From Candidatus Parcubacteria bacterium (lineage in GTDB: Bacteria; Patescibacteriota; Minisyncoccia; UBA6257; 2-01-FULL-56-20), in NCBI GenBank assembly GCA_027450205.1, contig DAIDJL010000003.1, positions 1-51,644 of the forward strand: a stretch of 51,644 bases of DNA, read 5' to 3'. This document shows, in pieces, positions 1,877-51,644 of this stretch; positions within the stretch are counted from its first letter, which is position 1, and each line of letters opens with the position of its first letter. A model generated the notes under the pieces. The model was not told the DNA's origin, made no database searches, and saw only the letters and a program-made list of their open reading frames with translations. Position numbers and translations under genes: made by a program.

Positions 1877-4800
1877 CTACCCGTGCGTCCCAATATACCG
1901 CCTCGTAAGCGGTCCGAAGAATCCGGTGGGAGGAAGTCCTGCGGAGGATTGGAATTTGATGAGGGCATCTTTGGTGGCAGGGCCGAAGAATTCCGTCTCA
2001 TAGCCCAGGGATCCTGCATAGGTGGGGGTGGTAACGATGGGATATCCATGGGTGTTCAGATAGTGCTGGAGGGATGCAACCTCGGGATCACGGTCTCCGA
2101 GGGAGAGGTTCTTGGTGAAGGAGGTAGTGGGGGCGGCACAGAGGGAGCTGATGGATGAAGAAAGAGAGATGCCTTTGGTCTCTGCCTGGGAGACGAGGGA
2201 GCAAAGCTCTTTCGTGAGAGAGAGAAGCTCTGCTTCCAGAGAGGCGGTGGAGGAGCTTTGGGTAAGGGTGGAAGAAGAGAGCTGGGAGCCCGTGCCGGAG
2301 GAGGAAGCAGAAGAGGATGAAGCGGTGCTGGTGCTCGTGCTTGTGGTCGGAGGGGCATAGTAGCCACCACCACCACCTCCGCCCGAGGAACCGCCACCCG
2401 AGGAGCCGGAGCCGCCACCGCCCGAAGAAGGAGCGGAGGATGGATTGGAAATGGGCGCGGTGGCGATATTCAAAACCAATGTCGCGCTATTCGTTGCTGC
2501 GCTATTCGTTGCAAAAATGGATATTGAATATGTGCCCGATACGGTGGGCGTTCCTGAAATGATGCCTGACGATGTATTTATTGTAAGTCCCGCAGGCAAT
2601 CCGGTAGCATTGTAACTTATTGGACCATTCGATGCCGCAATCTGATAGGAGAAATAAGATCCTTCAGTCGCGGAAGCAGAAAGCGGACTTGAAATAACAG
2701 GAGAAGATTGGGTCGCTGAAGGTGCGGAGGAATATTGATATGCTCCCGCATCCCACACGCCGGAGGAGGGGCGGGAAATATACGCCCGTGCGGGCAGAAT
2801 GACGGAATGAGTTGATTGATCGTACCCCACTCCATACGTGGTATCGTTGCATAAAGAAGACAGGCTTTCACCCGAGCTAAGCACCATCGAACAGTAACTC
2901 GATAGATTCGCCCCCGCGCCTATCGTGGGAGATCCCGATGTAGGAGAAAATACAAAAGCCTGGGCGATATCCATTCCGAGCGCATTCGCGCTATCGAGAG
3001 GAACGGAAACATTATTTGATTGCGTACAATTCGAACCGCAGGGATCAATGATTACCCTGCTCTGGGTGCAATCATGAATGCCTGGATCGCCAAGGCAGCT
3101 GACATAATAATTATTTTCGTAATCGCAGTGCCCATATCCGGCGGGACATCCCGACATCGGGCCGAGCGGGAACAATCCGGGGATCGAACCATTCGGATCC
3201 GGACCTCCTTCAATCGTATTATTCCATACATCAACCGACCCCGCAGTGCCACCTCCGCCACCCGGTGGATAACTAAGCTCGATCACGCTGTTCGATGTAA
3301 TATCTGCGAAAACATTGTTCCATACGTATTCTGTCGATCCGACGGGAGGGGTAAGCATTAAGGGAACCCCCGGCTTGATTCCCAGCATCACATTATTATC
3401 AACGACCGCGTACGGCGCATCGCCCAATCCCTCCATGCCATTCGAGTGAGCGGTGGGATTGATGGAAATACGCTCGTTTTCAAACGTATTTCCACTAAGC
3501 TCCTGAAATCCTCCGAGATAATAGCTCGCCACGTACCGTACGAAATTATTTTTGATGATCGCCGGCCCTTGATAAAATGCGGTGAGCGAACCAAGACAAT
3601 CAGTATAGGTCGATGTTGTGTTGTTGTTTTGCGCATTGATCGGACAATTCGGCTGGTTTTGCACCAGAGCAGTGTCCCATCCATCGATCACATTATCCTC
3701 AAACGTCATACCGGTACTATTGGGATAGCCCTGAATGCTCGTGAACGTTCCAGAGTCCCATCCCCCGATCACCGTACACGGAGTAGTCGCACATTCATTG
3801 CTTATCGCATCTACGATCTTTCCGTATCCATCGGTCAAACTTACCTGATTACCACTGATCGACGCGACAATGGGCCCGTTGTTTGCAAAAGGAAGAACGC
3901 ACCCCAAGCAGGCGATGCCGATCGGTTCCCCTACGACCACTCCGTTCATACTCCCGGTGATAGTAAGAATATTGCTCCCTTGCGCAATAGTTCCTTGGGT
4001 GTCAAGCGGCGTCGGATCGATCCATGCGTGATAATAGATATTTTTTACGTCGCCGTAACTCGTATATTGGGGAGCTCCTATCGCTTCGCCGGAGCCTTCC
4101 GAAGGAGGAGGATTATAATGGTTCCTGATCTCGAATCCGGAAATGGTCACGTAGTTCGGAGTGAAGAATATCATCGTCCCGGGATGAGGACCTCCTGTCG
4201 GGGCGACATTGGAACCGGTGCACCCGGGAAGATTGTTGGCCGGGGGAGCCGACACCTTGCATCCGTCGAACACCGGACGGTTCCACCCGTTCGGACATGA
4301 AGCAGTGTTATACCAGGATTTATCCCCGTCTCCCAGAAAATTCAAACCGGCGGATGCGGTCGTAATAGTGGCGTAATATCCCGTATTGTTCGAATATCCC
4401 TGCGGCCCGATCGTCCACGAAAAACTGGAGTTTGTCCATACGTCGCACCCCTTGAAGATAAAGGTGTCCCCCGGCAAGCTGTTGGGTCCGTATGCCGCGG
4501 CATTCCCCGTGGCGTCATTCATGCCAGGAGCATGGGCCCATGGGCCCGTATTGCCTGTTGTATGCGTTTTTTCCATACCATCCCAGCTATCATTTCCCCC
4601 GCTCGAAGAAATATAATAGGTATTGTGCGAAAGCGTCGTAGCCGATACCGGCGCGGATTGTCCGGAGATATTGCTCGATGTATCATATGCGGCAACCGTG
4701 TATGAATATGCCGTGGAATTCTTCAGCCCGGTGTCCACAAAAACAGTGCCGGTGGCATTGCCGACCTCGGTCCCGTTCCGGTAAATAAGATACCCCGCCA

Positions 4801-5662
4801 CCGCGACGTTGTCCGTGGAAGCGGTCCACGATAAGGCGATCTGATTTGCGGAATTCACCTGCGCCGAAAGGCCGGTCGGAACCGATGGCGGCGTAGTATC
4901 GTTGCTCCCGCCGGATGCACTCGCTTTGAATGTCGCTACCGCTATGACCGGAGCGGCATCGGCGGAACCATACGCTATCGAAGTCGTCGCGTTGGCCAGC
5001 GGCGATCCTATCGTCTCATATTCGCATGCGCTCTCCCCGTTGGAACCGCCGTTCGGGATCACATACCCGCTTGCTGCGGTGAACACATTGGGAACCGTCG
5101 CATGAGCGGCAGCGCACGCGATCACCACCTCCGACGTGGAAGTATTATTTGTGGAAAAAGGGCCGGATACCGCGGCCATCGTTCCCGGACCCTGACCGAC
5201 CGCGACCGCATCGAGGGGCGCGTTGATATCCGCAGAGGTGAATTGGAGTACCGTGATGCCGGTATCGCTCGTCAGATTCGCATTGCAGGTGACAGTATCC
5301 GAAAGGGACCCTTTGATATTCTTCGCATAGAATATGGCGATCGCATTATGATAGTTCGCGTTGAAAGTGCTGGTCGCGAGCACGAACTGGTTACCGGCGG
5401 TATCGGTAACAGAAGTACCGGAAAGATCGCCACCGGCACCGCATCCTACCACCAGAAGATTTCCCGATATTGCATTGACGGCAACGGAAACATTCCCCGG
5501 ACTGTTATTATATATCTCGTTCGACGTTGCATTGGAAAAAAGAGGTCCCCCCGATCCAAATGCCTGCCGATGGAAGAAAAAAACAAAGAATAATACTGCC
5601 ATTATTCCTCCGGCGGCGGACGCTTTCCATATTACCCGGCAAATATCAGATCTAATAAACAT
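1877..5662 (-). CDS. Large secreted cell-surface protein (1261 aa) with FN3, right-handed beta-helix-like region, putative Ig domain, G/S low-complexity linker and C-terminal peptidoglycan-binding domain
   Basis: N-terminal TM/signal segment (AAGGIMAVLFFVFFF). FN3-like stretch PPSVPTGLSAQVNSANQIALSWTASTDNVAVAGYLIYRNG. Ig-like stretch SYQIAASNGPISYNATGLPAGLTINTSSGIISGTPTVSGTY. C-terminal PG_binding_1-like stretch GDRDPEVASLQHYLNTHGY...GPATKDALIKFQSSAGLPPTG. Confidence 0.85.
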   Translation of the reverse strand: MFIRSDICRVIWKASAAGGIMAVLFFVFFFHRQAFGSGGPLFSNATSNEIYNNSPGNVSVAVNAISGNLLVVGCGAGGDLSGTSVTDTAGNQFVLATSTFNANYHNAIAIFYAKNIKGSLSDTVTCNANLTSDTGITVLQFTSADINAPLDAVAVGQGPGTMAAVSGPFSTNNTSTSEVVIACAAAHATVPNVFTAASGYVIPNGGSNGESACEYETIGSPLANATTSIAYGSADAAPVIAVATFKASASGGSNDTTPPSVPTGLSAQVNSANQIALSWTASTDNVAVAGYLIYRNGTEVGNATGTVFVDTGLKNSTAYSYTVAAYDTSSNISGQSAPVSATTLSHNTYYISSSGGNDSWDGMEKTHTTGNTGPWAHAPGMNDATGNAAAYGPNSLPGDTFIFKGCDVWTNSSFSWTIGPQGYSNNTGYYATITTASAGLNFLGDGDKSWYNTASCPNGWNRPVFDGCKVSAPPANNLPGCTGSNVAPTGGPHPGTMIFFTPNYVTISGFEIRNHYNPPPSEGSGEAIGAPQYTSYGDVKNIYYHAWIDPTPLDTQGTIAQGSNILTITGSMNGVVVGEPIGIACLGCVLPFANNGPIVASISGNQVSLTDGYGKIVDAISNECATTPCTVIGGWDSGTFTSIQGYPNSTGMTFEDNVIDGWDTALVQNQPNCPINAQNNNTTSTYTDCLGSLTAFYQGPAIIKNNFVRYVASYYLGGFQELSGNTFENERISINPTAHSNGMEGLGDAPYAVVDNNVMLGIKPGVPLMLTPPVGSTEYVWNNVFADITSNSVIELSYPPGGGGGTAGSVDVWNNTIEGGPDPNGSIPGLFPLGPMSGCPAGYGHCDYENNYYVSCLGDPGIHDCTQSRVIIDPCGSNCTQSNNVSVPLDSANALGMDIAQAFVFSPTSGSPTIGAGANLSSYCSMVLSSGESLSSLCNDTTYGVGYDQSTHSVILPARAYISRPSSGVWDAGAYQYSSAPSATQSSPVISSPLSASATEGSYFSYQIAASNGPISYNATGLPAGLTINTSSGIISGTPTVSGTYSISIFATNSAATNSATLVLNIATAPISNPSSAPSSGGGGSGSSGGGSSGGGGGGGYYAPPTTSTSTSTASSSSASSSGTGSQLSSSTLTQSSSTASLEAELLSLTKELCSLVSQAETKGISLSSSISSLCAAPTTSFTKNLSLGDRDPEVASLQHYLNTHGYPIVTTPTYAGSLGYETEFFGPATKDALIKFQSSAGLPPTGFFGPLTRRYIGTHG

Positions 5663-5748
5663 AATTACTTCTACTATACAACATTGCCAAAAATGAAAAG
5701 GTGGCTGAAATTCGTTGAATCGCCGGAGGCCATACTATATCATGAATA

Positions 5749-6765
5749 TTATTTCTTTCTCCGTATCACTTTTTTCGCCGCCGCCGCGATGTCCTTCGGC
5801 ATCATGCGATATTTTTTAATGAGCTCATCCGGCGCACCCGACTCGCCAAACGTATCCTGCATGCCGATGAACTCGATGGGTACCGGCGCATATTTCGCCA
5901 GTACCTCGGCGACCGCACCTCCCAAACCCCCGCTCACCTGATGCTCTTCCACGGTGACCACCGCGCCCGCCTTTTTTGCCAACTCGACGATCTTCTTATC
6001 ATCAATAGGTTTTATAGATGAACAATTCAAGACGATTGCGCCGATCTTCTCATCCTCTTCCAAAGCGCGCGCGGCGAGGAGTGCGTTATACAGCAAACCG
6101 CCGCAGCCGATTATCAACACTTCCGGCTTCTTCGCCGGGCCCGCGGCGGCGGAAGGCAGCCAGAATATCTCCGCCTTGCCCGGCGTATACGGCGTTTCAT
6201 CCGTCGTCATGATCGGCGTCTTCTCGCGCTGGAAGCGCAGATATACCGGACCGTACACCTGCTCTGCGGCGATCGTCGCCCTATGCGCCTCCAGGGCATC
6301 GCACGGAACGAACACTTTCATGTTCGGCATCGCGCGCATGATGGCGATGTCTTCCGTTGCCTGATGCGTCGCGCCGTCGGGGCCGACGGATATGCCGGCG
6401 TGATGGCCCGCGATCTTCACGTTCGCGTCGTTATACGCGACCGTCGTGCGGATCTGTTCCCAATTCCTGCCCGGCGAAAATGTTGCGTACGACGCGATGA
6501 ACGGGATCTTTCCGGTAACGCCCATGCCTGCGGCGACCGTCGCCATATTCTGTTCGGCGACGCCAAGCTCGAAGAACCGTTCGGGATATTTTTTGGCGAA
6601 CGCCTCCGTGCGCGTGGACTCGGTGAGGTCGGCGCAGAGCGCGACGACATTCGGATTCGCATCACCGGCAGCGACAAGCCCCGTTCCATAACCGTCGCGC
6701 GTCGGCGCCTGTGCGACGTCATCGTCAAAAAGATGCGGATTCAGTTTTATGTCGGGATTCAGCAT
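5749..6765 (-). CDS. Transketolase, C-terminal (pyrimidine-binding) subunit
   Basis: 338 aa with typical motifs: FFELGVAEQNMATVAAGMG, GPDGATHQATEDIAIMRAMPNM. Confidence 0.9.
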   Translation of the reverse strand: MLNPDIKLNPHLFDDDVAQAPTRDGYGTGLVAAGDANPNVVALCADLTESTRTEAFAKKYPERFFELGVAEQNMATVAAGMGVTGKIPFIASYATFSPGRNWEQIRTTVAYNDANVKIAGHHAGISVGPDGATHQATEDIAIMRAMPNMKVFVPCDALEAHRATIAAEQVYGPVYLRFQREKTPIMTTDETPYTPGKAEIFWLPSAAAGPAKKPEVLIIGCGGLLYNALLAARALEEDEKIGAIVLNCSSIKPIDDKKIVELAKKAGAVVTVEEHQVSGGLGGAVAEVLAKYAPVPIEFIGMQDTFGESGAPDELIKKYRMMPKDIAAAAKKVIRRKK

Positions 6766-10029: not shown

Positions 10030-11061
10030 TTATAAAAGCGCCGCCACTTTTTGCACGTGTTTTACGAGCGTCGAAACGTATCCCGCCTCGTTGTCATACC
10101 ATGAGAGCACCTTCACCATATCGCCATCGATCACTTTAATAAGATCGAGCGGGACGGTCGCGCCGAACGGCTGGCCGATGATGTCGGACGAGACGAGCTG
10201 ATCGCGCGTCACCTGAAGGATCCCCTTCCAGCGCTCCGAGTTCGCGGCATCGGTAAGGATCTGCGCGATCTCCTCCACTGTCGTCGGACGCTTTGCGATG
10301 AACGTGATGTCCGAAATTGAGCCGGTGATGTTCGGCAAGCGGAACGAAAGCCCGTCGAATTTTCCTTTGAGCTCCGGGATCGCGCGCGCCACGCTGATCG
10401 CGGCACCCGTCGTTTCGGGAACGGTATTCATCGCCGCGGCGCGGCCCTTGCGGTAATCATGGCCGCCGCGGATAGGTCCGTCCACAAGCGCCTGCGTGGC
10501 AGTGTACGCGTGCACCGTAGAAAGCGACGCCTTTATAATGCCCGGGTTTTCGGAAAGCACCTGAATGACCGGCGACGCGGAGTTCGTCGTGCACGATCCG
10601 TTGGACGAAATGGAACACGTCTTGAGGTGTTCCTCATTGACGCCCACAAGCACCGTCTGGCCCGCCGCGCCATCCGCATCCTTTGCCGGCGCCGTGATCA
10701 CCACGCGCTTCGCCCCCGCCGCAAGGTGCACCTTTGCCTTCTCGTATTCGTCGAACAATCCCGTCGACTCCACAACGATGTCAATGTTCAAATCCTTCCA
10801 CGGAAGCTGGGTCGGGTCCTTGACCTGCAGGAAATGTATTTCCTTCCCGGCGACAATAAGCTTGCCGTTCGGAAGATCCGCCTTGATCTCTTTATCGAAC
10901 CGGCCATAGACCGTGTCGTATTTCAAAAGGTACGCAAGATTCTCCACGTCGCCAAGATCGTTCAATGCGACGATCTCGATATTTGGCAGCTCGAATGCCG
11001 CCTTAAAGAACAGCCTGCCGATCCTGCCAAACCCGTTTATCGCAACCCGTACGTTTGCCAT
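10030..11061 (-). CDS. gap: Glyceraldehyde-3-phosphate dehydrogenase
   Basis: 343 aa; INGFGRIGR Rossmann start and an SNGSCTTN active-site Cys motif. Confidence 0.95.
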   Translation of the reverse strand: MANVRVAINGFGRIGRLFFKAAFELPNIEIVALNDLGDVENLAYLLKYDTVYGRFDKEIKADLPNGKLIVAGKEIHFLQVKDPTQLPWKDLNIDIVVESTGLFDEYEKAKVHLAAGAKRVVITAPAKDADGAAGQTVLVGVNEEHLKTCSISSNGSCTTNSASPVIQVLSENPGIIKASLSTVHAYTATQALVDGPIRGGHDYRKGRAAAMNTVPETTGAAISVARAIPELKGKFDGLSFRLPNITGSISDITFIAKRPTTVEEIAQILTDAANSERWKGILQVTRDQLVSSDIIGQPFGATVPLDLIKVIDGDMVKVLSWYDNEAGYVSTLVKHVQKVAALL

Positions 11062-28961: not shown

Positions 28962-29534
28962 TTATAGCATTCCCATGAGATATACCGTTGTGAATATGAA
29001 TATCCAGACGATGTCCAGAAAATGCCAGAACAGGGCGAAGCGGGTGAGTTTTGAAGTGACGCCGGGCGTGAGACCGCGAAGCTTCAGCTGGACGATCGCG
29101 ACAATGATCCAAAGGAGCCCCACGGCGATGTGCAGCCCGTGCGTACCGACGAGCGTAAAGAACGATGAAAGGAACGCGCTCCTCTGCCAGCTCGCGCCGA
29201 TCGCGATGAATCGTGAGAATTCGCCGAGCTCCAGTGCAAGGAACGTCGCGCCAAGCGCAAAGGTGGCGATGAGCCATGCAATTGTCTGATTGACCTTCCC
29301 CTTTCGCGCCGCGAGCGTCATAAGCCCGCAGGTAAAGCTGGAGGTAAGCAGCACGAGCGTGTTCACAAGTGCCGTCGGCAGACTGAAAAGATCATTCGAT
29401 GTCGGACCGCCGAACGTGTTCGCCCGCAACACCATATATACCGCAAAGAGCACACCGAAGATGATAATGTCGGTCATCAGATAGACCCAGAATCCGAATG
29501 CGTGCGTATCGTTTTTTTCCATTATTTTTTCCAT
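28962..29534 (-). CDS. cyoC: Cytochrome o ubiquinol oxidase subunit III
   Basis: 190 aa; FGFWVYLMTDIIIF..., WHFLDIVWIFIFT. Confidence 0.9.
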   Translation of the reverse strand: MEKIMEKNDTHAFGFWVYLMTDIIIFGVLFAVYMVLRANTFGGPTSNDLFSLPTALVNTLVLLTSSFTCGLMTLAARKGKVNQTIAWLIATFALGATFLALELGEFSRFIAIGASWQRSAFLSSFFTLVGTHGLHIAVGLLWIIVAIVQLKLRGLTPGVTSKLTRFALFWHFLDIVWIFIFTTVYLMGML

Positions 29535-31525
29535 GCTAATTTTTCCAATCGCTCAACCTCGGCCGCCGGCAATACGTATTCGGTATCCTCATCGAACGAA
29601 CGGATGATCACGCACGCGATCGCGCCGAAAATCCCCAGTAACGCAAGCCAGATAATATGCCACACCAGCCCGAACGCGGCAAGGAACACGAACCCCGAAA
29701 GATAGATCGCCATGCCGGTGTTCTTTGAAAGAGTGATGTCATCATATCCGTCCGGCGGCAAAATCCCGGGGCGCTCGCCGCGCTTTTTCATTTCCCAGAA
29801 CGCATCGCGGCCATCCACCACCGGCGTCTTCGCAAAGTTATAGAACGGCACCGGCGACGCGGTCGCCCACTCAAGCGTATGCCCGTCCCACGGGTCACCC
29901 GTCGTATCCGTATTCTGCCGGCGATCCCTGATGCTTACGATGACCTGCCAGGCCTGGGTAATAACCGCGGCGGCGATGATGCACACGCCGGTCGCCGCAA
30001 TGATGAAGAACGGCTGCCAGCCGGTGGAGGCGGCGTAATGATCAAGCCGGCGCGTGGCGCCAAGGAATCCCAATATATACAGCGGCACGAACGACATGAA
30101 AAAACCGACGATCCAGAGCCAGAACGCGCGGCGGCCGATCTTTTCATTCAGCGTGAACCCGAACACTTTCGGGAACCAATACGTGATGCCCGCAAAGATG
30201 CCGAAAAGCGCGGCGCTCACGATCATCGTGTGGAAATGCGCGACGAGAAAGAGGCTGTTGTGCAATTCAAAATCCGCGCCCGGGATGGAAAGCAATACCC
30301 CCGCCATGCCGCCGAAGGTGAACAAGCTTACAAATCCCATAAAATACATCATCGGCGTCGTGAACCGTATCCGCCCGCGGAACATCGTGGCGATCCAGTT
30401 GAAGATCTGCGCCGCGGTGGGAATCGCGATAATCCCCGTCATGATGCCGAAAAACGCATCCACGTCCGCGCCGGCGCCCATCGTAAAGAAATGGTGCAGC
30501 CACACAAGGAACGAAAGCAGGGTGATTGCTATCGCTGAGCACACCATTGAAACGTAGCCGAATATTTTCTTGCCGGAAAAGGTTGCGACGATCTCGGAGA
30601 ATATGCCGAACGCGGGAATAACGAGGATATATACCTCAGGATGGCCCCACATCCAGATAAGGTTCACATATAACATCGGGTTGCCGCCAAAGCCGGAGGT
30701 AAAGAAATGCATGCCAAAGAACCGGTCGAACCACAGGAGCAAGGTCGTTATGGTAAGCACCGGAAACGATGCGACGACAAGCACCATGCTGCAGAGCGAC
30801 GTCCAGGTGAAAAGCGGCATCATCATGAGCTTCATCCCTTTTACGCGCATCTTGAGGATGGTCACGATAAAATTGATGCCGCCAAGCAAGCTACCCAGCC
30901 CGGAAATTTGCAGGCTCCACACCCAATAGTCCACGCCGGTGCCGGGGCTGAACTGGATCTCGGAAAGCGGCGGTAACGACAGCCAGCCGGATGCCGCGAA
31001 CTCGCCGCCGACCACGAAGAACATATTGATGAACACCGCGCCCGCCACATAGAGCCAGAACCCGAGCGAATTCAGGAACGGGAACGCGAGGTCGCGGGCG
31101 CCGATCTGCAGCGGCACGATCAGGTTCATGATGCCGAAGAAAAATCCCATAGTGACGAAGAAGACCATGATATCGCCGTGCGCGGTGAATATCTGCTGGA
31201 AATGGCTCGCATCAAGATAGCCGTGCGCGGCACCGAGGTAGCCCGGCGCATTACCGGCGGAGATTGCCTGCTGTATCCAGATCATGATTGCGTCCAGCCC
31301 CCCGCGAAACAGCATAAGCGAAGCCATCACGATGTACATGATCCCGATCTTCTTTGGGTCGGTTGACGTGAGCCACTCCTTCCAAAGCCATGTCCACCGC
31401 TTGAAATAAGTAATGACCGCCGCGACAATGATCCCGCCCACTATGATCGCACCCGTCCCGCCAATGGTGAACCATTGGTGAGGAAGGTCGCTCCATGTAA
31501 GATCTCCAAGAAAAAAGTGTTCCAT
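29522..31525 (-). CDS. cyoB: Cytochrome o ubiquinol oxidase subunit I (heme-copper oxidase)
   Basis: 667 aa; GHPEVYILVIPAFG, HHFFTMG, VAHFHTMIV. Confidence 0.95.
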   Translation of the reverse strand: MEHFFLGDLTWSDLPHQWFTIGGTGAIIVGGIIVAAVITYFKRWTWLWKEWLTSTDPKKIGIMYIVMASLMLFRGGLDAIMIWIQQAISAGNAPGYLGAAHGYLDASHFQQIFTAHGDIMVFFVTMGFFFGIMNLIVPLQIGARDLAFPFLNSLGFWLYVAGAVFINMFFVVGGEFAASGWLSLPPLSEIQFSPGTGVDYWVWSLQISGLGSLLGGINFIVTILKMRVKGMKLMMMPLFTWTSLCSMVLVVASFPVLTITTLLLWFDRFFGMHFFTSGFGGNPMLYVNLIWMWGHPEVYILVIPAFGIFSEIVATFSGKKIFGYVSMVCSAIAITLLSFLVWLHHFFTMGAGADVDAFFGIMTGIIAIPTAAQIFNWIATMFRGRIRFTTPMMYFMGFVSLFTFGGMAGVLLSIPGADFELHNSLFLVAHFHTMIVSAALFGIFAGITYWFPKVFGFTLNEKIGRRAFWLWIVGFFMSFVPLYILGFLGATRRLDHYAASTGWQPFFIIAATGVCIIAAAVITQAWQVIVSIRDRRQNTDTTGDPWDGHTLEWATASPVPFYNFAKTPVVDGRDAFWEMKKRGERPGILPPDGYDDITLSKNTGMAIYLSGFVFLAAFGLVWHIIWLALLGIFGAIACVIIRSFDEDTEYVLPAAEVERLEKLAWKK

Positions 31526-31529
31526 GGTT

Positions 31530-32351
31530 TTACATTTGCATTCCCGGAAAAGCCATCGGCGTGCCGGTCGGCGACGGCGCGTTGTATTTCGTTAAAATTG
31601 CCGTAAACAGATACGGATCAACGGACGAATAGAATGCCGGCGGATCATTTTCGCTCGGCGGCAGGAGGGTGTTTTTATATTCATCCACCGTCAACGTATT
31701 CGAGGAATCCTTTACGGACGCAACCCACGCGTTGAAATCGTTCTGCGAGGTCGACCTGGCAAGGAACGTCATGCCGGAATATCCCGCGCCGTTGATCTCC
31801 GTATCCTTGCCGACGTACGTTCCCGTCGCGCTCGCCATAAGGTCAAGCTGGGTCTCCATTGCCGCCATCGCGTATATCTGGCTGCCAAGCTGAGGGATCC
31901 AGAACGAGCTCATCGGCGCGTCCGCCGTCAGCACAAAATGGATCGGCGTCTGTTCCGGAAACTGGATGAAGTTCACTGTCGCGATCCCCTGCGCCGGATA
32001 GATAAAGAGCCATTTCCATTCAAGCGCCACGACCTCGATCGTAAGCGGCGGCCTGCCGGAAACGATCGGTTTGTACGGATCAAGCGCGTGCGTACTTTGC
32101 CAGTTGATGACCGCGATCACCGCGATGATGGCCGCCGGGATTGCCCACCATGTGAGCTGTTTCAACGCATTGCCGACATGCTGCGGGTCATATGCCGCCT
32201 TTTTATTGCCCGCCCGATACTTCCACGCGAACGTGTAGAGTAGGATCAGCATCGGGATCGCGATCAAAAGCATGAGCGACACGGCGATGATAATGAGATC
32301 TCGCTCCTGTAATGCTATCGGACCCTGCGGGTCAAATACGCCGCCTGACAT
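31530..32351 (-). CDS. cyoA: Cytochrome o ubiquinol oxidase subunit II (quinol-oxidase type, no CuA ligands evident)
   Basis: 273 aa; FWIPQLGSQIYAMAAMETQL...GAGYSGMTF resembles CyoA/QoxA. It begins directly at the region that follows the lipobox in E. coli CyoA. Confidence 0.85.
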   Translation of the reverse strand: MSGGVFDPQGPIALQERDLIIIAVSLMLLIAIPMLILLYTFAWKYRAGNKKAAYDPQHVGNALKQLTWWAIPAAIIAVIAVINWQSTHALDPYKPIVSGRPPLTIEVVALEWKWLFIYPAQGIATVNFIQFPEQTPIHFVLTADAPMSSFWIPQLGSQIYAMAAMETQLDLMASATGTYVGKDTEINGAGYSGMTFLARSTSQNDFNAWVASVKDSSNTLTVDEYKNTLLPPSENDPPAFYSSVDPYLFTAILTKYNAPSPTGTPMAFPGMQM

Positions 32352-32432
32352 TTTTTAATTGTACCATGCCGCGGCGGGCCCCACGGGCTCAGCGGATTTG
32401 GTGTATACTGGAAAAACATCTCCATTTCTTGC

Positions 32433-35721: not shown

Positions 35722-36909
35722 CTATAATGAATTCCAGATCGCCGGATCCATTTGCCCATCGGCTTTAAAGAATGCCACACCGCGCAGGCCGTATTTTTTT
35801 GCGAGCGCAACCTTCTGCAGCTCGGACGTCGCATCGGGGAACGAAACAAAGAACGTGGTCGTCGCATTCGGATTCGGATGCATCAGCACCGCGGGTTCAG
35901 TAGACGAAACGTATGAAGTGAGAATGGGCGGCTCCTGGATATACGTGGTCGAGGCAAAAGTGAAACTGAGCTCCCCGGCATTGTTGCGCACGGGCTCGAT
36001 GCCGAGAGAATCCGCGCGATCCATCGCACCGAAGAAATCGAACGCACGCACGCGCTGGTAGGTCGTCACATTGTTCGCCCACGAGACCTCGTATTCGTAG
36101 CCATAGGTCGGGATGCCAAGCATGATCTTTTTGGGATTGATATATTGCAATGCGTACCGGATAAGCTTCGTTACCCAATCCGGATCCGCCACTGGCGCAT
36201 AAAGCGTACCGTTGCCTTTGGTTGCATTGAGCTTGATGTCCACCGTCTCCTGGTCATACGCCATCAGACGCACCTCATCGCAATACCGGTTGAGCAATGG
36301 ATAGTTTTCCGGATAAACAACGTTCGCCGGCGGGTTCACATACAACGAGTCAAGCGGCGTGCGAGGCACGACGGTGCAGGTAAGCATCTTTCCGGCCGGG
36401 TGCAAGCGCATTGCCAGTCCCTCTATGAACAATGAATAGTACGGCCGCGTGGCGGGATACATCCCCTCAAAGTCAATATCAATGCCGTCGAAATTATTGT
36501 TCTTTACGAGCGCCGCGATCTTATCCTCCTCCGCCTGGCGCGCTTTAGTGTTTGAAAGAAGCTTCATAATGCCGTCCGCATTGAACCACGCGATCGTGGG
36601 AATGATCTTATTGCCGTTGGAACGTACCGCCGAAAACCAGTTATCCCACGCGCCGCTGCCGATCTTGAGGTCATCCAATATCGCCCCGCCGGCGCCGATC
36701 TCATACGAAAACGGGCTGATCTCATTCAGGGAATTCAAATTGAGCGCAACCTCCTGCTCCCCCGCTTGCGTGGTCCAAAAGGGCAGCCATGCGGCATAAA
36801 CGAGCGGTTTCGCCGTCGTCGCGGCGCGTGCGGCGGCCGTAAACATAAACAAGGAAACCGCGCCCAGAACAAGCACGGCCGCACCTGCTTTAATGAAATT
36901 TTTTGCCAT
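35722..36909 (-). CDS. Secreted glycoside hydrolase family 18 (chitinase/lysozyme-like)
   Basis: 395 aa; signal peptide; catalytic FDGIDIDFE (DxxDxDxE) motif. Confidence 0.85.
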   Translation of the reverse strand: MAKNFIKAGAAVLVLGAVSLFMFTAAARAATTAKPLVYAAWLPFWTTQAGEQEVALNLNSLNEISPFSYEIGAGGAILDDLKIGSGAWDNWFSAVRSNGNKIIPTIAWFNADGIMKLLSNTKARQAEEDKIAALVKNNNFDGIDIDFEGMYPATRPYYSLFIEGLAMRLHPAGKMLTCTVVPRTPLDSLYVNPPANVVYPENYPLLNRYCDEVRLMAYDQETVDIKLNATKGNGTLYAPVADPDWVTKLIRYALQYINPKKIMLGIPTYGYEYEVSWANNVTTYQRVRAFDFFGAMDRADSLGIEPVRNNAGELSFTFASTTYIQEPPILTSYVSSTEPAVLMHPNPNATTTFFVSFPDATSELQKVALAKKYGLRGVAFFKADGQMDPAIWNSL

Positions 36910-36911
36910 GG

Positions 36912-37784
36912 TTATTTTTTAATACAAATATAATTTCCTTTTGTAACGATAAAACCCTCTTTTTCCAGCCCGGCAGCGATCTTTTCCAATCTTTTCCGTG
37001 GAACGGCAAATGTTATCAAAAGATCACTAAACGTTGCCCTGCGGCCTTTTTGCGAGAGCACCGTACGCAACATTCGTCCGCGTAACTGACGATCGGACCC
37101 GGTGAATGCAGCCTGTTTCGTGTAATGAGCACTGCGGCGATTGGGATTCGCCTCCTTCTTTGCTGCCGCACCCATGACAGGCAGCGCCGCTCCATAATCC
37201 ATAAGCGCCCAATACCATTCTCTCGCATTTTTGCGATCAACGCTACTCCCGATATAACGTTCCAATTCGGCATCCGTTACCCGGCGCCGCTTCGCAAAGA
37301 AAAAATGAATGAAAACGCGGCGAATGTTCGTCTCAATGAACACCTCCGGCACATTGAATGCAAATGCCATGATCGATCCCGATGTCCCCTTCCCGATGCC
37401 GGGCAACGACTCAAGCGCCGCCCGATCACACGGCAGTCGGCCGCCATATTTTTCCATGATGGTCTCCGCCGCGCGCTTCAGGAACAACGCGCGCCGGTTA
37501 TAACCGAGACCCTGCCACGCCGCAAGCACATCGCCCGTCCGAGCATGCGCGAGGGAGCGGAAGTCCGGGAACCTTTTGATGAACTTTTCATAATAGCCAC
37601 CGACGCGCGAAACCTGCGTCTGCTGAAGCATGATCTCGGAAACGAATATGGCGTAGGGGTCGCGCGTGCGCCGCCACGGGAGCGTCTTCCGCCCCGCACG
37701 GCGGTAATGCGTCCAGATGGTCCTTTTGAAAGCGGTGGCTGGCGTGATCCGGGACATTAAATTCATATTAACCGCGATTTGCAC
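36912..37784 (-). CDS. HhH-GPD DNA glycosylase, MutY-like but lacking the 4Fe-4S cluster loop; winged-helix-like C-terminus
   Basis: 290 aa; WRRTRDPYAIFVSEIMLQQTQV, LPGIGKGTSGSIMAFAF. The whole protein has only 2 Cys. The tail is a wHTH-like GFIVTKG rather than a NUDIX-like domain. Confidence 0.75.
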   Translation of the reverse strand: MQIAVNMNLMSRITPATAFKRTIWTHYRRAGRKTLPWRRTRDPYAIFVSEIMLQQTQVSRVGGYYEKFIKRFPDFRSLAHARTGDVLAAWQGLGYNRRALFLKRAAETIMEKYGGRLPCDRAALESLPGIGKGTSGSIMAFAFNVPEVFIETNIRRVFIHFFFAKRRRVTDAELERYIGSSVDRKNAREWYWALMDYGAALPVMGAAAKKEANPNRRSAHYTKQAAFTGSDRQLRGRMLRTVLSQKGRRATFSDLLITFAVPRKRLEKIAAGLEKEGFIVTKGNYICIKK

Positions 37785-37808
37785 TTTCTGAAAAGGTTAT
37801 GGTATAAT
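37779..37808 (+). promoter_or_regulatory. Sigma70-like promoter TTGCAC-N18-(TG)GTATAAT for the RRM gene
   Basis: Read directly. It gives a 5' UTR of about 115 nt containing a tandem 9-mer atgttgggc (37859..37867 and 37871..37879). Confidence 0.5.
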
Positions 37809-37930
37809 GATTGCGATGTAAGTGTTCTTAGTAAGTTTCCCTTAGCCGCACTATCATGATGTTGGGCATAATGTTGGGCGGTGCAGAAGCAGAGGAGAAG
37901 CAGGTCGCCTTACACATCAATAGCAATTGA

Positions 37931-38239
37931 ATGGCTACAAAATTATACGTTGGAGGTTTACCGTACTCGACGACCCAGGATGAGCTCCAGACAGCGTTCG
38001 CCAAGGCGGGCGCAGTTGTGTCCACGAGCATCATCATGGACAAGATGACCGGCCGCTCACGCGGATTCGGCTTCGTTGAAATGGGTTCCGATGACGATGC
38101 GCAGAAAGCGATCGAAATGTGGAACGGCCAAGATTTCGATGGGCGCAAGCTCACCGTGAACGAGGCCAAGCCTCTCGAGGCTCGCCCTCCGCGCCGCGAA
38201 GGCAACTTCGGTGGTGGCGGTGGACGCGACTGGCAGTAA
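37931..38239 (+). CDS. RRM-type RNA-binding protein with Gly-rich tail
   Basis: 102 aa; RNP-2 LYVGGL, RNP-1 RGFGFVEM, C-terminal GGGGG. Confidence 0.9.
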   Translation: MATKLYVGGLPYSTTQDELQTAFAKAGAVVSTSIIMDKMTGRSRGFGFVEMGSDDDAQKAIEMWNGQDFDGRKLTVNEAKPLEARPPRREGNFGGGGGRDWQ

Positions 38240-38262
38240 ATCGTCGGTTCATTAACCTCAAA

Positions 38263-38286
38263 ATACCCCTTTCGGGGTATTTTTGT
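38263..38286 (+). terminator. Rho-independent terminator after the RRM gene
   Basis: atacccc-tttc-ggggtat hairpin followed by ttttgttt. Confidence 0.75.
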
Positions 38287-38336
38287 TTGAACTATTTTTT
38301 TGAGATAAGGGTCAGAATAAGCTGAGCCTTATATAA

Positions 38337-38720
38337 ATGCAACACGTACCCCCCCCGACACCTCAGATTTCCATCATCCAGCATCTCGTCAGTGCGTACA
38401 AGATCTGGCATGAGTTCCTGCCGCATGTGCAGGGGGATGCGCGGTACACGCTCGGCATAAAAATAGACAATCTCCTCATCGAGAGCGCCGATATGATGTA
38501 TAGCGCGAACTACGCGAGCCAAGGCAAGAAATTGCCCTATCTTAAGCAGGCCGCCCGTCGGCTCGACCTCGCCAAGTTCTTTCTTGAGGTGTTTTGGGAA
38601 ATCAAGGGATTGGACGGGGACAAATACGCCGCGCTCTCGGAACGGCTTTTCGAGATCGGCAAGATGCTCGGCGGATGGATTCGCCAGACCGCCTCAAAAG
38701 AAACTCCCGCCTCGAAATGA
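38337..38720 (+). CDS. avd: Four-helix-bundle protein of the 23S-rRNA-IVS/Avd family (DGR accessory variability determinant candidate)
   Basis: 127 aa and basic. Pattern Y..W.EFLP...RYTLG.KIDNLL...A..L..AKFFLEV...K......Y..LSERLFEIGKMLGGWIRQ is typical of this family as I recall it. Its stop lies 17 nt from the TR. Confidence 0.7.
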   Translation: MQHVPPPTPQISIIQHLVSAYKIWHEFLPHVQGDARYTLGIKIDNLLIESADMMYSANYASQGKKLPYLKQAARRLDLAKFFLEVFWEIKGLDGDKYAALSERLFEIGKMLGGWIRQTASKETPASK

Positions 38721-38727
38721 GACGGGA
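38692..38727 (-). terminator. Rho-independent terminator of the TR transcript (hairpin spans the avd stop codon)
   Basis: On the minus strand, ctcccg(t)ctc-atttc-gag(g)cgggag is followed by tttcttttga. The plus strand has no T run after it. Confidence 0.55.
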
Positions 38728-38736
38728 GAACGATGA

Positions 38737-38862
38737 GATTTGCGAGCGACGCGGCCGGGTTGTTGGAGTTCCAGTCGTTGTCGAGCCAGTTGTAGTTCCA
38801 GTTCCACCTGTCGCCGTTCCAGTACAGGTACTCGACATACAGGTTGCCGTTCGCGTTGCGGA
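38737..38862 (-). repeat. DGR template repeat (TR)
   Basis: 126-nt ungapped alignment to 39263..39388. There are 20 mismatches, 17 of them at minus-strand adenines of this copy. 34 of its 126 bases are adenines. The in-frame reading FRNANGNLYVEYLYWNGDRWNWNYNWLDNDWNSNNPAASLAN has 12 Asn codons (11 AAC, 1 AAT). Confidence 0.8.
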
Positions 38863-39125
38863 ATCGTGCGCCGTGCCATCCGTGCCACCGCCCTTCGATT
38901 ACTCTCGGGGTTGAATCGTATCCGGGATCTCCCCTGCTTGGGTAATCCACCAGCACCGCGCACCAAGTATCCTTCGTTTTTATTCGGTTGAAAGAACAAC
39001 GCTGGCAGAAAGCGTACCCGCTGCCATTCTGCGTCCAGTGATACCAGAATGCGGCCGCCCGAAACCCGCTGGCTGCATGCCAGCCAACATAGCCTCGGAC
39101 TTGTTTTGAGCCTTATTCCACAGAC

Positions 39126-39134
39126 ATTCTACCA
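39126..39134 (-). promoter_or_regulatory. Extended -10 element (TGGTAGAAT on the minus strand) driving the TR RNA
   Basis: Same TGGTAnAAT pattern as at 21205, 26359 and 37800. It lies just downstream of the target-gene terminator. Confidence 0.45.
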
Positions 39135-39149
39135 CGCGCAGCTTGATGA

Positions 39150-39190
39150 GAAAAAGAAAGCCCGCGCAAGAACTGAAGTTCGTGCGCGGG
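39150..39190 (-). terminator. Rho-independent terminator of the DGR target gene
   Basis: On the minus strand, cccgcgcacgaac-ttca-gttcttgcgcggg (12 bp, 1 mismatch) is followed by ctttctttttc. Confidence 0.75.
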
Positions 39191-39259
39191 GCAGAAAGAA
39201 ATACGAAGAGCTAAGGGGAAGAGGATCAAAAAAAGTCCAACCGCCCCATGTTCCAAGGA

Positions 39260-39928
39260 CTAACTTGCGAGCAACGCGGCCGGGTAGCGGGAGTTCCGGT
39301 CGTAGTCGAGCCAGCTGAAGTTCCAGAGCCACCTGATGCCGCTCCAGCACAGGTACTCGACATACAGGCGGCCGCGCGCGCTGCGGAAGGTGGTACCCCA
39401 GAAATAGGTGTACCCGGACCTCCACTCATCAGGAATGAGCTGCGGGTTGGCAAACAAGGCATCCATAATGCAGGCGTTCAGCACCTGCACGTCCTTCAGT
39501 TCCTTGCGGAGCTTGTGGCCTTGGATCACCTTGCCGTTCTTCTGGTTTGGCGAGAGGTATCGGACGACTTCCTTGCCGTTCGCGTAGAGCTTGCCGTCCT
39601 CGCGCTTTTCGAGCGTGATTTTGCCCATCTTGCGATGCTCGGTCCCTTCGCCCGTCAGGTAGAGACCCGATGGGATGTTGGGGTTAAGGTCGCAGTCCAC
39701 GACAATGGACATCGGGAGTGGAGCGGGTTGCGGTTGTGTCACGAAAGCGGTTTGAGATTCCTGAACCGGAACGATTTTCGCGTTTCCGAGAAGTACTTCG
39801 CGGATGCCGCCAAGCTGATCGCCAGCGGCAAGAGCGCTTACCAATTCGTGCGAATATCCGTTGCGAGCAAGTGCAAACTCGATCATTTGAATCTCGCCTG
39901 CGCTGCTGAAAGTAAACTTGTCAGCCAT
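39260..39928 (-). CDS. DGR variable (target) protein, 222 aa, with the VR forming its C-terminal 42 codons
   Basis: AAGGAG RBS 8 nt before the ATG. No signal peptide is evident. The C-terminus FRSARGRLYVEYLCWSGIRWLWNFSWLDYDRNSRYPAALLAS corresponds to the TR reading with Asn positions replaced. Confidence 0.8.
   Translation of the reverse strand: MADKFTFSSAGEIQMIEFALARNGYSHELVSALAAGDQLGGIREVLLGNAKIVPVQESQTAFVTQPQPAPLPMSIVVDCDLNPNIPSGLYLTGEGTEHRKMGKITLEKREDGKLYANGKEVVRYLSPNQKNGKVIQGHKLRKELKDVQVLNACIMDALFANPQLIPDEWRSGYTYFWGTTFRSARGRLYVEYLCWSGIRWLWNFSWLDYDRNSRYPAALLAS
39263..39388 (-). repeat. DGR variable repeat (VR)
   Basis: See the TR entry. This copy carries G, C or T at 17 positions where the TR has A. 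It ends at the stop codon of the target gene. Confidence 0.8.
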
Positions 39929-39970
39929 GACATGTTCTCCTTTTTATGACACACCCTTTTGGGATAAGTC

Positions 39971-39999
39971 ATATTCTGCCGCTTGGTTGCAGCTTTCAA
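39971..39999 (-). promoter_or_regulatory. Candidate promoter of the DGR target gene (TTGAAA-N17-GAATAT on the minus strand)
   Basis: Read directly. The -35/spacer overlaps one arm of an 11-bp inverted repeat (39986..39996 / 40023..40033). Confidence 0.4.
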
Positions 40000-40155
40000 A
40001 TCATCGTATCGGCGACGAGCTAAAAGCTGCAACGAAACAACAAATCCTTGGAATATTTCTTATAAAAGAGCTGCTAATTACAGGGCTTAGTATACCACTA
40101 TATATACAATGTTGTCAATAGCGACGAAAACTCGCACTTCCTATAGAATTATCAT

Positions 40156-41214
40156 ATGGAAACCGTTCTCCTCACCATCATCGCCATCCTCTTCGCCGTG
40201 ATCGCGTGGCGGCTTTGGCGGCCGCAGGAGGCAAAAAAAGAAGAACCGCAATCACTCCTTCTTTTACAGAACCAGATAGCCGAGCTTAACCGGATGATCG
40301 AAGCCAAGCTCGGCGATTCGGCAAAAGCGATCAGTGAATCAAAAAATCAGGCGCTCACCCAGGCCGCCGAAAGCACGCGCCTCATCCGCGAGATCACGCA
40401 GGAGCTCGCCAAGGTGGGCGAGGGCCAGCGCCAGGTGGTGAACATTGCAGATAATCTCAAAAACCTGCAGGATATCCTGAAGAACCCGAAACAGCGCGGC
40501 GTGCTCGGCGAATATTATCTGGAGACCGTGCTCAAGAACGTGCTTCCGCCGAACGCGTACCAGATGCAATATCCCTTTAAAGACGGCACAATCGTGGACG
40601 CCGCCGTGATCACAAAGGACGGCATCATCCCGGTGGACTCCAAATTCTCGCTTGAGAACTATAACCGCATTCTTGAGTCGTCAGACAAGGCCGAGCGCGA
40701 GCGCTACGAGAACGCCTTCGCGAACGATCTCAAAATCCGCATTGACGAGACGTCGAAATACGTGAAGCCGGAAGAAGGCACGCTCGGCTTCGCGTTCATG
40801 TTCATCCCGTCCGAGGCGGTGTACTACGACCTGCTCATCAACAAAGTGGGTGCGCTGAAATCCAACAACGTCAACCTCGTGGAATACGCCAGCGGCAAAA
40901 AGAAAGTGATCATCGTCTCCCCCACCACGTTCCACGCATATCTGCTCACCGTCCTCCAGGGCCTCAAAGCCCTGCGTATCGAAGAGAGCGCAAAGAAGAT
41001 CAGCGAGCGCGTCGGCGAACTTGGAAAACATTTGCTCAGTTATGAGGAATACTTCGGCAAAGTCGGCAAGAACCTGACAACAACCGTCTCCGCCTACAAC
41101 TCGGCAGGCAAGGAATTCGGAAAGATCAATAAAGATATCTTGCGCATTACGGGCGAGCAGCTCGAGCTCGAATCGCCGACGGTAGAAAAGCCGGAAGATC
41201 AATCAACCGATTAG
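40156..41214 (+). CDS. rmuC: DNA recombination protein RmuC
   Basis: 352 aa: N-terminal TM, coiled coil, then an RmuC nuclease-like core (RGVLGEYYLETVL...VDSKFSLENY...FMFIPSEAVY). Confidence 0.85.
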   Translation: METVLLTIIAILFAVIAWRLWRPQEAKKEEPQSLLLLQNQIAELNRMIEAKLGDSAKAISESKNQALTQAAESTRLIREITQELAKVGEGQRQVVNIADNLKNLQDILKNPKQRGVLGEYYLETVLKNVLPPNAYQMQYPFKDGTIVDAAVITKDGIIPVDSKFSLENYNRILESSDKAERERYENAFANDLKIRIDETSKYVKPEEGTLGFAFMFIPSEAVYYDLLINKVGALKSNNVNLVEYASGKKKVIIVSPTTFHAYLLTVLQGLKALRIEESAKKISERVGELGKHLLSYEEYFGKVGKNLTTTVSAYNSAGKEFGKINKDILRITGEQLELESPTVEKPEDQSTD

Positions 41215-50082: not shown

Positions 50083-51644
50083 TCACGGACTCCAGTTCAC
50101 AACGACGCTACTCACGACCGGAGTGGAAAGCTGGGCAGCATCGGCAAACAAAACGATGCGATAGCGGAAATAACGATATCCCGAAAACAAAGCATATCCC
50201 GCGCCGCCAATATTACTCACAAGAGGAATGCTCGTTCCCGGAGGGGTGCCAAGGCCGAAATACGTCGTCGCGTCGCCGGAAGGGCCCTCAAAACTCCATG
50301 GGCCGCCGGAGGAATTGCTGACCGCGATCTGAAACCCGACATTCGTTCCGGCAGGCTCCGATCCGCTCCACTGCAAAGAGTTCAATTGTGCGCCGCCCGA
50401 AACCCCCGTATCGAACGTCGCCGAATCGAGCGTCCCCGACGCGGCATATCCTCTAAAGATCGGCGTCGCAAAGATCCCCATTATCGCTCCGTAATCCGTG
50501 GAAGTTGCGGCTGTCCACGTAGCCGCAATATTCATCTCCGTGGATGTCGCGATGTCTTCCGCATAGAGAGATTGATCGGAACCGTTATTTCCCATGGACA
50601 CCTCGGGGGTCCAGCCCGACCCGTCGACAGCGGTCGTAACAGCATCGAACGCCATCGTACCGAAATAAAGCTCGTTGGACGAATGCCCCATGGCATACTG
50701 CGATGTGATATTCGTCGCCGTGCCGGTATTATCGGTATTCGCACTATAGGAATCGAGCGTTGACGAAGGATCCATATCGGTATATTCGAACGCCGCCGCG
50801 GAAAGCGCCCCCCCGCTTGAACCGTTCGCCGTAATGGTAAAAGAGGACGTACTGTTGACGTTCTTTGCGTAGTATAAATCCAACCGCTCCGGAGCTGTAC
50901 CGAAGGTCGTTGACGCAACAAGCATATACGTATCGCTCGCATTGTCGGTGGGTGCATTGATGGCCTGCCCTCGCGACGACACCGCGACAAGGACCAGATC
51001 CCCCGCACGGGGAGCAAAGCCGAATGCGGGAAGAGCCAACTGAGTGACGCCCGACCCCGCTGCCGTTGACGTCTGCACGAGCTGCAACCGCGGCCCCGTG
51101 ACAAAATTCCAATTCGAACCGTTGTTGCCGCTGTTCACGCCGTTTGAAACGACGATCGGAGCGGTACCGCCCTGGTCCTGCACGTTGGCGTAGCGGATGA
51201 TGAATTTTCCCGTTCCCGACCAGGGCACCTGGCTGCCGGTCGTCGTGGAGTTGATAATGACATTGTCCGGGACGTTCGCAGTGCATGCAGCACTGCTGCC
51301 GTCGAAAAATACGAGGCCGTTGTTCACAACTCCAGCGCCGATGCTGAGTGTGGAACTCGCAAGAGGATAATCCGTCAGCCGCCCTCCGGGATCGACGGTC
51401 AATATCCCGTCGGACGTGAAAGAAACAGGACTCGTCCCCGTCGCAAGCTGGAGCTCCCCTTGGGCGATAGTGGTCAAAGCAGTGACTGAAACAGGTCCGT
51501 ATACATACGCAATGCCGGAAGGTTTGTTGATGGTGAGGTTGGGGAGGTAGAGGCCATAAGTGCCGTCGATGATCTGGGTACCGGTGCCGTTCATAACAAG
51601 GTTTGTGGTCCCGGTCGCGGATGATGCCCAATAGGTCTCATTGG
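50083..51644 (-). CDS. Giant surface protein, C-terminal part (frame open to the right window edge; joins in frame to 1..1828 through the 141-nt terminal repeat)
   Basis: The track ORF 50083..51594 begins MNGTGTQIIDG, but the frame continues upstream to the window end. 51504..51644 equals 1..141 and the codon phases agree. The joined gene is 3249 nt (1082 aa). Confidence 0.8.
   Translation of the reverse strand, partial: NETYWASSATGTTNLVMNGTGTQIIDGTYGLYLPNLTINKPSGIAYVYGPVSVTALTTIAQGELQLATGTSPVSFTSDGILTVDPGGRLTDYPLASSTLSIGAGVVNNGLVFFDGSSAACTANVPDNVIINSTTTGSQVPWSGTGKFIIRYANVQDQGGTAPIVVSNGVNSGNNGSNWNFVTGPRLQLVQTSTAAGSGVTQLALPAFGFAPRAGDLVLVAVSSRGQAINAPTDNASDTYMLVASTTFGTAPERLDLYYAKNVNSTSSFTITANGSSGGALSAAAFEYTDMDPSSTLDSYSANTDNTGTATNITSQYAMGHSSNELYFGTMAFDAVTTAVDGSGWTPEVSMGNNGSDQSLYAEDIATSTEMNIAATWTAATSTDYGAIMGIFATPIFRGYAASGTLDSATFDTGVSGGAQLNSLQWSGSEPAGTNVGFQIAVSNSSGGPWSFEGPSGDATTYFGLGTPPGTSIPLVSNIGGAGYALFSGYRYFRYRIVLFADAAQLSTPVVSSVVVNWSP
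51504..51644 (+). repeat. Terminal direct repeat, copy 2 (identical to 1..141)
   Basis: Direct comparison of the two window ends. Confidence 0.95.

Follow-up and report, generated by a model that had tools for sequence, protein, structure and literature searches.

A diversity-generating retroelement cassette lacking its reverse transcriptase gene in a Parcubacteria contig is probably a recently inactivated remnant

How should a diversity-generating retroelement (DGR) be understood when it carries a target gene, a template repeat (TR) and a gene for an accessory protein, and no gene for the reverse transcriptase (RT) that would copy the template? This question is raised by a locus in a 51,644-nt stretch of a Candidatus Parcubacteria bacterium (contig DAIDJL010000003.1, assembly GCA_027450205.1), referred to here as the window. 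The window is one complete contig (51.6 kb), and all statements made here about the same genome are limited to that contig. An earlier sequence-only reading of the locus had offered three explanations for the missing enzyme: an RT acting in trans, a decayed DGR frozen after past diversification, or the use of another polymerase. The second is the best supported of the three, given an orthologous locus that retains the RT (L094; related loci are cited by L numbers), the mismatches between the TR and the variable repeat (VR) at positions other than adenines, and the condition of the accessory variability determinant gene, avd. We consider the cassette to be most likely a recently inactivated DGR remnant with a frozen VR and not a new kind of system.

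That the locus is a DGR can be read directly from its two repeats, which lie on the minus strand, as had been noticed from the sequence alone, with an offset of 525 nt (Table 1). Over their 126 nt, TR and VR show 20 mismatches, of which 17 are located at TR adenines; adenines make up 27% of the TR (binomial p = 1e-7). Every one of the 17 adenine mismatches falls at codon position 1 or 2 of the target frame. This pattern of differences is the DGR signature. The remaining, non-adenine differences are found at TR positions 38812, 38773 and 38748, the second of which reads TGG in the TR and CGG in the VR and replaces with arginine a tryptophan that is kept in nearly all aligned homologues of the target. 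By inspection of the sequence, the 3' ends of TR and VR have a GC-rich block in common (CCCGGCCGCG...GCTCGCAA), after which they diverge to AAT in the TR and GTT in the VR, making this a candidate for the paired initiation of mutagenic homing elements (IMH and IMH*), and a short AGTCC...GGACT stem with a T-run is found downstream of the VR. In most of the clade's cassettes, CCTTGG-like motifs recur beyond the VR and stop codon (39215-39262 on the minus strand of the window; columns 20-100 of alignment A7), and these might belong to target-site recognition as IMH-flanking elements.

Ninety-eight homologues from Patescibacteria make up the family of the target, in which the scaffold is conserved and the C-terminus hypervariable. 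An AlphaFold model of the protein has a mean predicted local distance difference test (pLDDT) score of 79, rising above 85 from residue 70, with a confident C-terminal domain. The top Foldseek matches in the PDB are C-type lectin (CLec) domains, with E values of 0.16-1 and TM scores of 0.35-0.45; as these matches are too weak (E >= 0.16), no fold assignment is claimed. On the window lineage the scaffold has acquired four nonsynonymous and nine synonymous private changes by parsimony, and because of this ratio it appears to remain under constraint. Downstream of the gene, the terminator proposed earlier corresponds to a hairpin that is conserved among close relatives in alignment A7 and that was missed by the terminator scan since its loop exceeds the length allowed by the scan.

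The 127-aa open reading frame (ORF) on the plus strand is Avd, as judged by homology. It matches PF22296 (bAvd) with E = 8e-8 and 33 bits, under the 40-bit curated cut-off of that family, and has 457 homologues with a best identity of 87%; nearly all of the 120 homologues listed have PF22296, and some are named four-helix-bundle protein. Look-ups by exact sequence returned no recorded protein identical to the Avd or the target of the window. The gene is oriented against the target and the TR and converges on the TR hairpin, in agreement with the earlier description. A poly-C run in codons 5-7 of avd (38349-38356, plus strand) varies from 8 to 11 C among close relatives (it is present also in L007, L008, L012, L093 and L094), and lies within the few bases that separate the divergent avd and RT starts; gene callers place the avd start at differing sites, yielding products of 96-133 aa. 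The run could be a slippage-prone tract acting on expression, or alignment and annotation noise.

The absence of an RT from the window held up under more sensitive searching. No RT family was matched in Pfam by the 49 longest non-overlapping ORFs of the window, and tblastn of the window with three RTs of the clade returned nothing but the antisense of the avd 5' end. A hidden Markov model (HMM) built from ~25 clade RTs, which detects RT fragments of 55 aa in control loci, gave a best domain score of -7.6 (E = 6) when run with filters off on the full six-frame translation of the window. With regard to mutagenic copying by a polymerase other than an RT, or by an RT-like enzyme encoded nearby that went unrecognised, several window ORFs have no Pfam match. 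Those ORFs encode secreted or membrane proteins of repetitive sequence or are spurious antisense frames, every relative has a canonical DGR RT adjacent to avd, and the orthologous locus L094 points to simple loss of the RT, so that the proposal of another polymerase found no support and its probability is practically negligible.

Comparison across the clade indicates that the missing RT is the only unusual property of the cassette. In the relatives, the target is followed by a spacer of ~350 nt and by the TR on the same strand, and then, after 20-50 nt, by an inverted avd and an RT on the target strand, with the start of the RT abutting or overlapping that of avd. This complete form was found in about 100 relatives. 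In an Avd-anchored scan of metagenomes, the RT was divergent from and adjacent to avd in all 75 loci with enough flanking sequence, its start falling between about -77 and +198 nt relative to that of avd, and the RT likewise abuts avd in all complete cassettes from GTDB genomes. The closest Avd relatives (L012, L093 and L094; 87-89% identity) are all RT-bearing. This order corresponds to architecture B3, TR-(avd)-RT, which accounts for 90% of the DGRs of the candidate phyla radiation (CPR) and is hardly found outside that group (Wu, Zimmerly et al., Nucleic Acids Res 2018, PMC5758913). In the window the TR-(avd) part of B3 is present and the position of the RT is taken by a 31-nt junction and the RRM gene. 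The layout that had been called atypical is therefore the standard one for the clade, since the inverted avd, the TR promoter and the terminator over the avd stop are all clade-wide, and the locus may serve as a worked example that an avd convergent on the TR is normal CPR design. The genes flanking the cassette do encode an RRM protein and RmuC, as had been stated; an RRM gene was not a conserved cassette neighbour in the first 92 loci.

The most direct evidence for how the RT came to be missing is provided by L094 (JGI Ga0182027_10037766), which aligns with the window in three blocks on either side of and within the cassette (Table 1). The window has 31 nt at the junction between the first two blocks and L094 has 1136 nt, an interval that holds a 335-codon RT ORF (1997-3004, minus strand) as well as ~110 nt of its 3' flank. 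DNA homology of the window to every close relative has a sharp edge at 38330, with 7 nt left to the avd ATG, and this edge is the position of the RT start codon in those relatives. Because this orthologue has its RT precisely at the 31-nt junction of the window, the RT was most likely lost in place through a deletion of ~1.1 kb in the window lineage. As the other parts of the cassette are almost undamaged, the deletion would appear to be recent. A further locus, L173, encodes an RRM protein identical to that of the window, and in it the RRM terminator is followed directly, within ~28 nt, by RmuC (560-720); the edges of this empty site correspond to window positions 38288 and 40154. One chromosomal site is thus found in three states: L094 has the full cassette, the window a cassette without RT, and L173 none. 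Orthology of the RRM-RmuC site was established through L094 and L173 only. The cassette in its entirety (1.9 kb) is thus polymorphic for presence and absence here, for which insertion and deletion are both possible.

Such a junction could also be produced by assembly, if an RT between the RRM gene and avd had been skipped or two strains had been joined. Repeat-driven assembly problems do occur on this contig, the exact 141-bp terminal repeat of which (k = 141, de Bruijn) closes inside a repetitive surface-protein gene, and the TR of another locus, L009, does not fit its own VR, possibly as the result of a chimeric assembly. A de Bruijn assembler needs a shared repeat at both ends in order to skip 1.1 kb, however, and none was seen at the junction. 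The sequence across it is continuous, comprising the RRM terminator, ~40 nt of orthologous spacer and the retained 7-nt avd leader, and the empty L173 shows an independent presence/absence polymorphism at the same site. We regard an assembly artefact as highly unlikely.

Loss of the RT in place leads to the question of whether the VR is still being rewritten. The window has three non-adenine TR/VR mismatches, whereas among 27 RT-bearing cassettes 17 have none, eight have one and two have two; the closest relatives (L093, L094 and L095) have one each. The difference between defective and complete cassettes is significant (Mann-Whitney p = 8e-4). The three mismatches, together with the tryptophan-to-arginine change, argue indirectly against recent homing, since retrohoming would reset them. 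The avd gene has accumulated nine nonsynonymous and four synonymous private changes in the window, compared to 21 and 40 in four RT-bearing relatives pooled (Fisher p = 0.023; parsimony), which suggests that its constraint has been relaxed on the window lineage. The gene also appears to have been deprived of its native upstream region, as the RT deletion would have taken everything more than 7 nt upstream of avd. Inactivated DGRs are common in the published survey, in which more than half of the DGR candidates were discarded for stops, truncations or poor TR-VR matches (PMC5758913).

These observations can be combined into a proposed course of events. In the complete cassette, a promoter just downstream of the target would drive a ~430-nt RNA made up of a ~260-nt leader, the 126-nt TR and a terminator hairpin, and the RT/Avd complex would copy the TR into complementary DNA (cDNA), misincorporating opposite adenines, so that the cDNA could take the place of the VR at the target's 3' end. 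A deletion of ~1.1 kb would then have removed the whole RT gene, beginning with the start codon that lies 7 nt away from the avd ATG and reaching ~110 nt beyond the stop, bringing the terminator of the RRM gene beside avd. Without an RT, rewriting of the VR would stop, the target would be fixed in its last variant under purifying selection, and avd and the TR RNA would now be dispensable.

Several points weigh against a frozen remnant. Three non-adenine mismatches are barely above the 0-2 of active-looking cassettes, orphan VRs that appear to be served in trans have two, and one of the three in the window is close to the 3' end, a region in which a difference between IMH and IMH* may be legitimate. 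The residues that are invariant in the Avd family are all retained in the window, and only 13 events stand behind the substitution-count tests. The TR is likewise undamaged, as are the promoter motif and the terminator. The leader has no private broken pairs, its 61 pairs being kept save for two non-canonical ones shared with L093, and it has only three private substitutions, two of which change a Watson-Crick pair to G-U. An RT elsewhere in the genome is possible, as the 51.6 kb of the contig is what was covered. Trans action of DGR components is seen within the clade, where orphan VRs match distant templates, and in Bordetella phage BPP-1 avd, TR and brt function in trans from a plasmid (cited in PMC5758913). 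The intact avd, leader and TR speak against a long-dead element, and we read them as a sign that the loss was recent.

Some of these points would also favor the cassette being a still active satellite, in which the local TR RNA and Avd use the cognate RT of another DGR in the genome and the VR continues to diversify. Among the TRs compared, the local one fits the VR best, with three non-adenine mismatches against at least seven for the others. Trans homing has sequence support in the clade: in genome CAYWDX01 the orphan VR of L015 fits the TR of L016, which lies on a separate contig, with 15 adenine and two non-adenine mismatches, and in genome JAHFIV01 the orphan VR of L081 likewise fits the TR of L073, on a separate contig, with 19 and two. 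These pairs indicate, by sequence match, trans homing onto remote targets in Patescibacteria. Neither orphan target has a TR, avd or RT within 10 kb, and orphans of this kind make up over half of the 80 homologues of the target in GTDB genomes. In addition, TR and target modules without avd or RT can still have clean adenine-only mismatches, as in L026 (12 adenine, 0 non-adenine) and L053 (14 and 1). The adjacent RT in 75 of 75 assessable Avd relatives, on the other hand, implies that an RT-less Avd and TR is not a recurrent, maintained design, and no genome among the 80 target-anchored GTDB loci showed two RT-bearing cassettes. The L094 orthologue shows the RT removed by deletion at the window site, the VR has point mutations that homing would erase, and avd has both a relaxed constraint and a lost upstream region. 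An active satellite is accordingly an unlikely reading, though one to be kept in view. Distinctly doubtful is the broader proposal that RT-less satellite modules in general (the window with avd, L026 and L053 without) are maintained active by an RT, or an RT and Avd, elsewhere in a small Patescibacteria genome. Were the satellite reading true, one RT would serve several distinct templates and not merely several targets, DGR biology would extend from multi-target to multi-template systems, and RT-anchored surveys would undercount diversifying loci. It is correct, as pointed out before, that surveys anchored on RTs would pass over this locus, although the element so overlooked is most likely dead.

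A recently frozen remnant is also in keeping with the range of states found among the relatives, which, by sequence comparison, form a decay series running from the full cassette through RT fragments (L014, L028), loss of avd and RT with the TR kept (L026, L027, L053) and loci with the target only (about 45) to the empty site. The truncated RT of L007 was not accepted as firm evidence of decay, as it consists of three frameshifted pieces on a long-read-style contig and may be a sequencing error. The leader, TR and target of L026 (8929-9272), L027 (1079-1431) and L053 (8243-8505) are present with no avd, RT or remnants of either found at these loci, and these may have arisen by deletion very recently or may be templates for an RT acting in trans. 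In L009 and L008, which come from sister samples, flanks, RT and avd are common to both and the VR is almost identical; the L009 TR (2385-2510) has many non-adenine differences from the L008 TR (10309-10434) and 19 from L009's own VR. Recombinational replacement of the TR or a chimeric assembly could account for this. The states at the RRM-RmuC site in L094, the window and L173 can be used to calibrate the rate of decay of TR/VR pairs, of avd and of the TR RNA after mutagenic homing has ceased, and the window itself demonstrates that detection of a TR/VR pair is by itself no proof of activity.

The RNA unit that carries the TR may prove more useful or more novel than the RT-less cassette in which it was noticed, since its ~260-nt leader is fused to the TR, supported by covariation and without a match in Rfam. 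In an RNAalifold analysis of 15 cassettes, compensatory changes were found at 38 of the 61 pairs; 98% of the cells in the leader alignment are paired, compared to ~40% when the partners are slid, and none of 500 shuffles attained the observed values. With nhmmer the leader is present in 112 of 173 loci (L007-L012; L014-L092, 34 loci; L093-L172, 71 loci), and the window leader scores 191 bits (E = 9e-57) with the clade profile, the alignment of which includes the window itself. No Rfam family was found for the leader or the hairpin, the RT-1 to RT-19 motifs included; the sole match, ClpQY_promoter, was rejected as chance (E = 0.87). Upstream of the leader, the private extended -10 promoter proposed for the TR corresponds to a TGnTAnnAT motif that is aligned and conserved in most relatives and that went unflagged in a promoter scan for two hexamers; its role as a promoter is putative. 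The predicted terminator after the TR was recovered by the terminator scan, and the avd stop TGA (38718-38720) straddles the boundary between its stem and loop. This hairpin and its U-tract occur in 29 of 29 cassettes, with varying inner stems. In the BPP-1 DGR RNA, the flanks of the TR are reported to be needed for cDNA synthesis by RT-Avd (PMC6182149; bioRxiv 10.1101/2023.10.23.563531). By analogy, the leader and 3' hairpin of the window are likely RT/Avd recognition and priming elements, with the leader probably being the RT/Avd-binding part of the DGR RNA. The use of promoter motif, leader and terminator hairpin together as a marker of the clade was defined in the present analysis.

Table 1. 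Features of the cassette and its surroundings, and blocks aligned with the RT-bearing orthologue L094
Feature	Window position	Strand	L094 position	Identity	Basis
RRM-protein gene	37931-38239	+			RRM_1, E = 4e-22 (Pfam)
DGR cassette insert, RRM-gene terminator to RmuC start codon	38289..40153	-			empty site in L173
Deletion junction, 31 nt (1136 nt in L094)	38299..38329	.			blastn
avd (accessory variability determinant), 127 aa, intact ORF	38337-38720	+			PF22296 and homologues
Intrinsic-terminator-like hairpin after TR; 10-bp stem 38728-38719 / 38713-38704 and T-tract 38703-38696	38696..38728	-			terminator scan
Template repeat (TR), 126 nt, 34 adenines, 11 in-frame AAC codons	38863->38738	-			repeat comparison
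Structured 5' leader of TR RNA, ~260 nt, 10 helices, 61 pairs	39120-38859	-			RNAalifold
Extended -10-like motif GTGGTAGAAT, putative TR-RNA promoter	39135-39126	-			read from sequence; putative function
Terminator-like hairpin (CCCGCGCA...TGCGCGGG and T-run) downstream of target gene	39192-39159	-			alignment A7
Variable repeat (VR), final 42 codons of target gene	39388->39263	-			repeat comparison with TR
DGR target gene, 222 aa, without Pfam family	39928->39260	-			ORF; VR is its 3' end
Sigma-70-like promoter upstream of target (TTGACA, 18-nt spacer, TATACT, with TG)	40118-40089	-			scan, 11/12 consensus match only
RmuC gene	40156-41214	+			E = 7e-51 (Pfam)
Aligned block: MutY-like gene, RRM gene and terminator	36434-38298		1-1855	72%	blastn
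Aligned block: avd, TR, part of target	38330-39734		2992-4378	84%	blastn
Aligned block: RmuC	39974-41198		4598-5830	82%	blastn

Some properties of the contig as a whole were also recorded. Its ends are an exact direct repeat (1-141 = 51504-51644), the signature of a 'circular' contig from a k = 141 de Bruijn assembly, and when the ends are joined, the stretches 2-1843 and 50086-51642 (minus strand) form one uninterrupted ORF that encodes a secreted protein of repetitive sequence. The contig carries housekeeping genes of chromosomal type (ftsZ, ftsA, hisS, nrdAB, tkt, gap and cytochrome oxidase). Because of this gene content, a repeat-driven false closure is more likely than a true 51.5-kb circle, and a genuine circular replicon of that size was judged unlikely, the terminal repeat also lying inside a repetitive gene. 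The cytochrome oxidase is encoded by a haem-copper (quinol-type) operon at 28965-32354 with COX1, COX2 with COX_ARM, and COX3. Respiratory chains are usually absent from Patescibacteria, and the genome looks like one of that group.

Among known systems, the window is closest to the B3 DGRs of the CPR (PMC5758913), with which it shares the order of target, TR and inverted avd, a Patescibacteria host, a single adjacent target with a 3' VR, and adenine-specific differences; it is unlike them in having no RT gene, through the ~1.1-kb deletion relative to L094. The prototype DGR of Bordetella phage BPP-1 (mtd-avd-TR-brt) resembles it in a TR that templates a C-terminal VR, in adenine mutagenesis at positions 1 and 2 of AAC codons, in an Avd four-helix-bundle accessory protein, and in TR-flanking RNA, the need for which is reported for BPP-1. 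In contrast to BPP-1, the window element is chromosomal and not phage-borne, has an inverted avd downstream of the TR and no RT, appears to produce a TR RNA with its own promoter, long structured 5' leader and terminator, and has a target whose modelled fold resembles C-type lectins only weakly. Remote or orphan targets, as known from Treponema and Legionella ('non-adjacent targets', PMC5758913), are similar in being VR genes without a nearby RT and are served in trans, but they have no TR or avd, whereas the window retains a TR, a leader RNA and an avd of its own and has a VR derived from that local TR. Inactivated or degenerate DGRs share with the window the loss of an essential component and the beginning accumulation of non-adenine TR/VR differences. 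The window differs from these in that its defect is a clean and complete deletion of the RT, with the rest intact, that can be seen against both an RT-bearing orthologue and an empty site. On the best reading, the locus is a degenerate member of the known DGR class, produced by ordinary genome decay.

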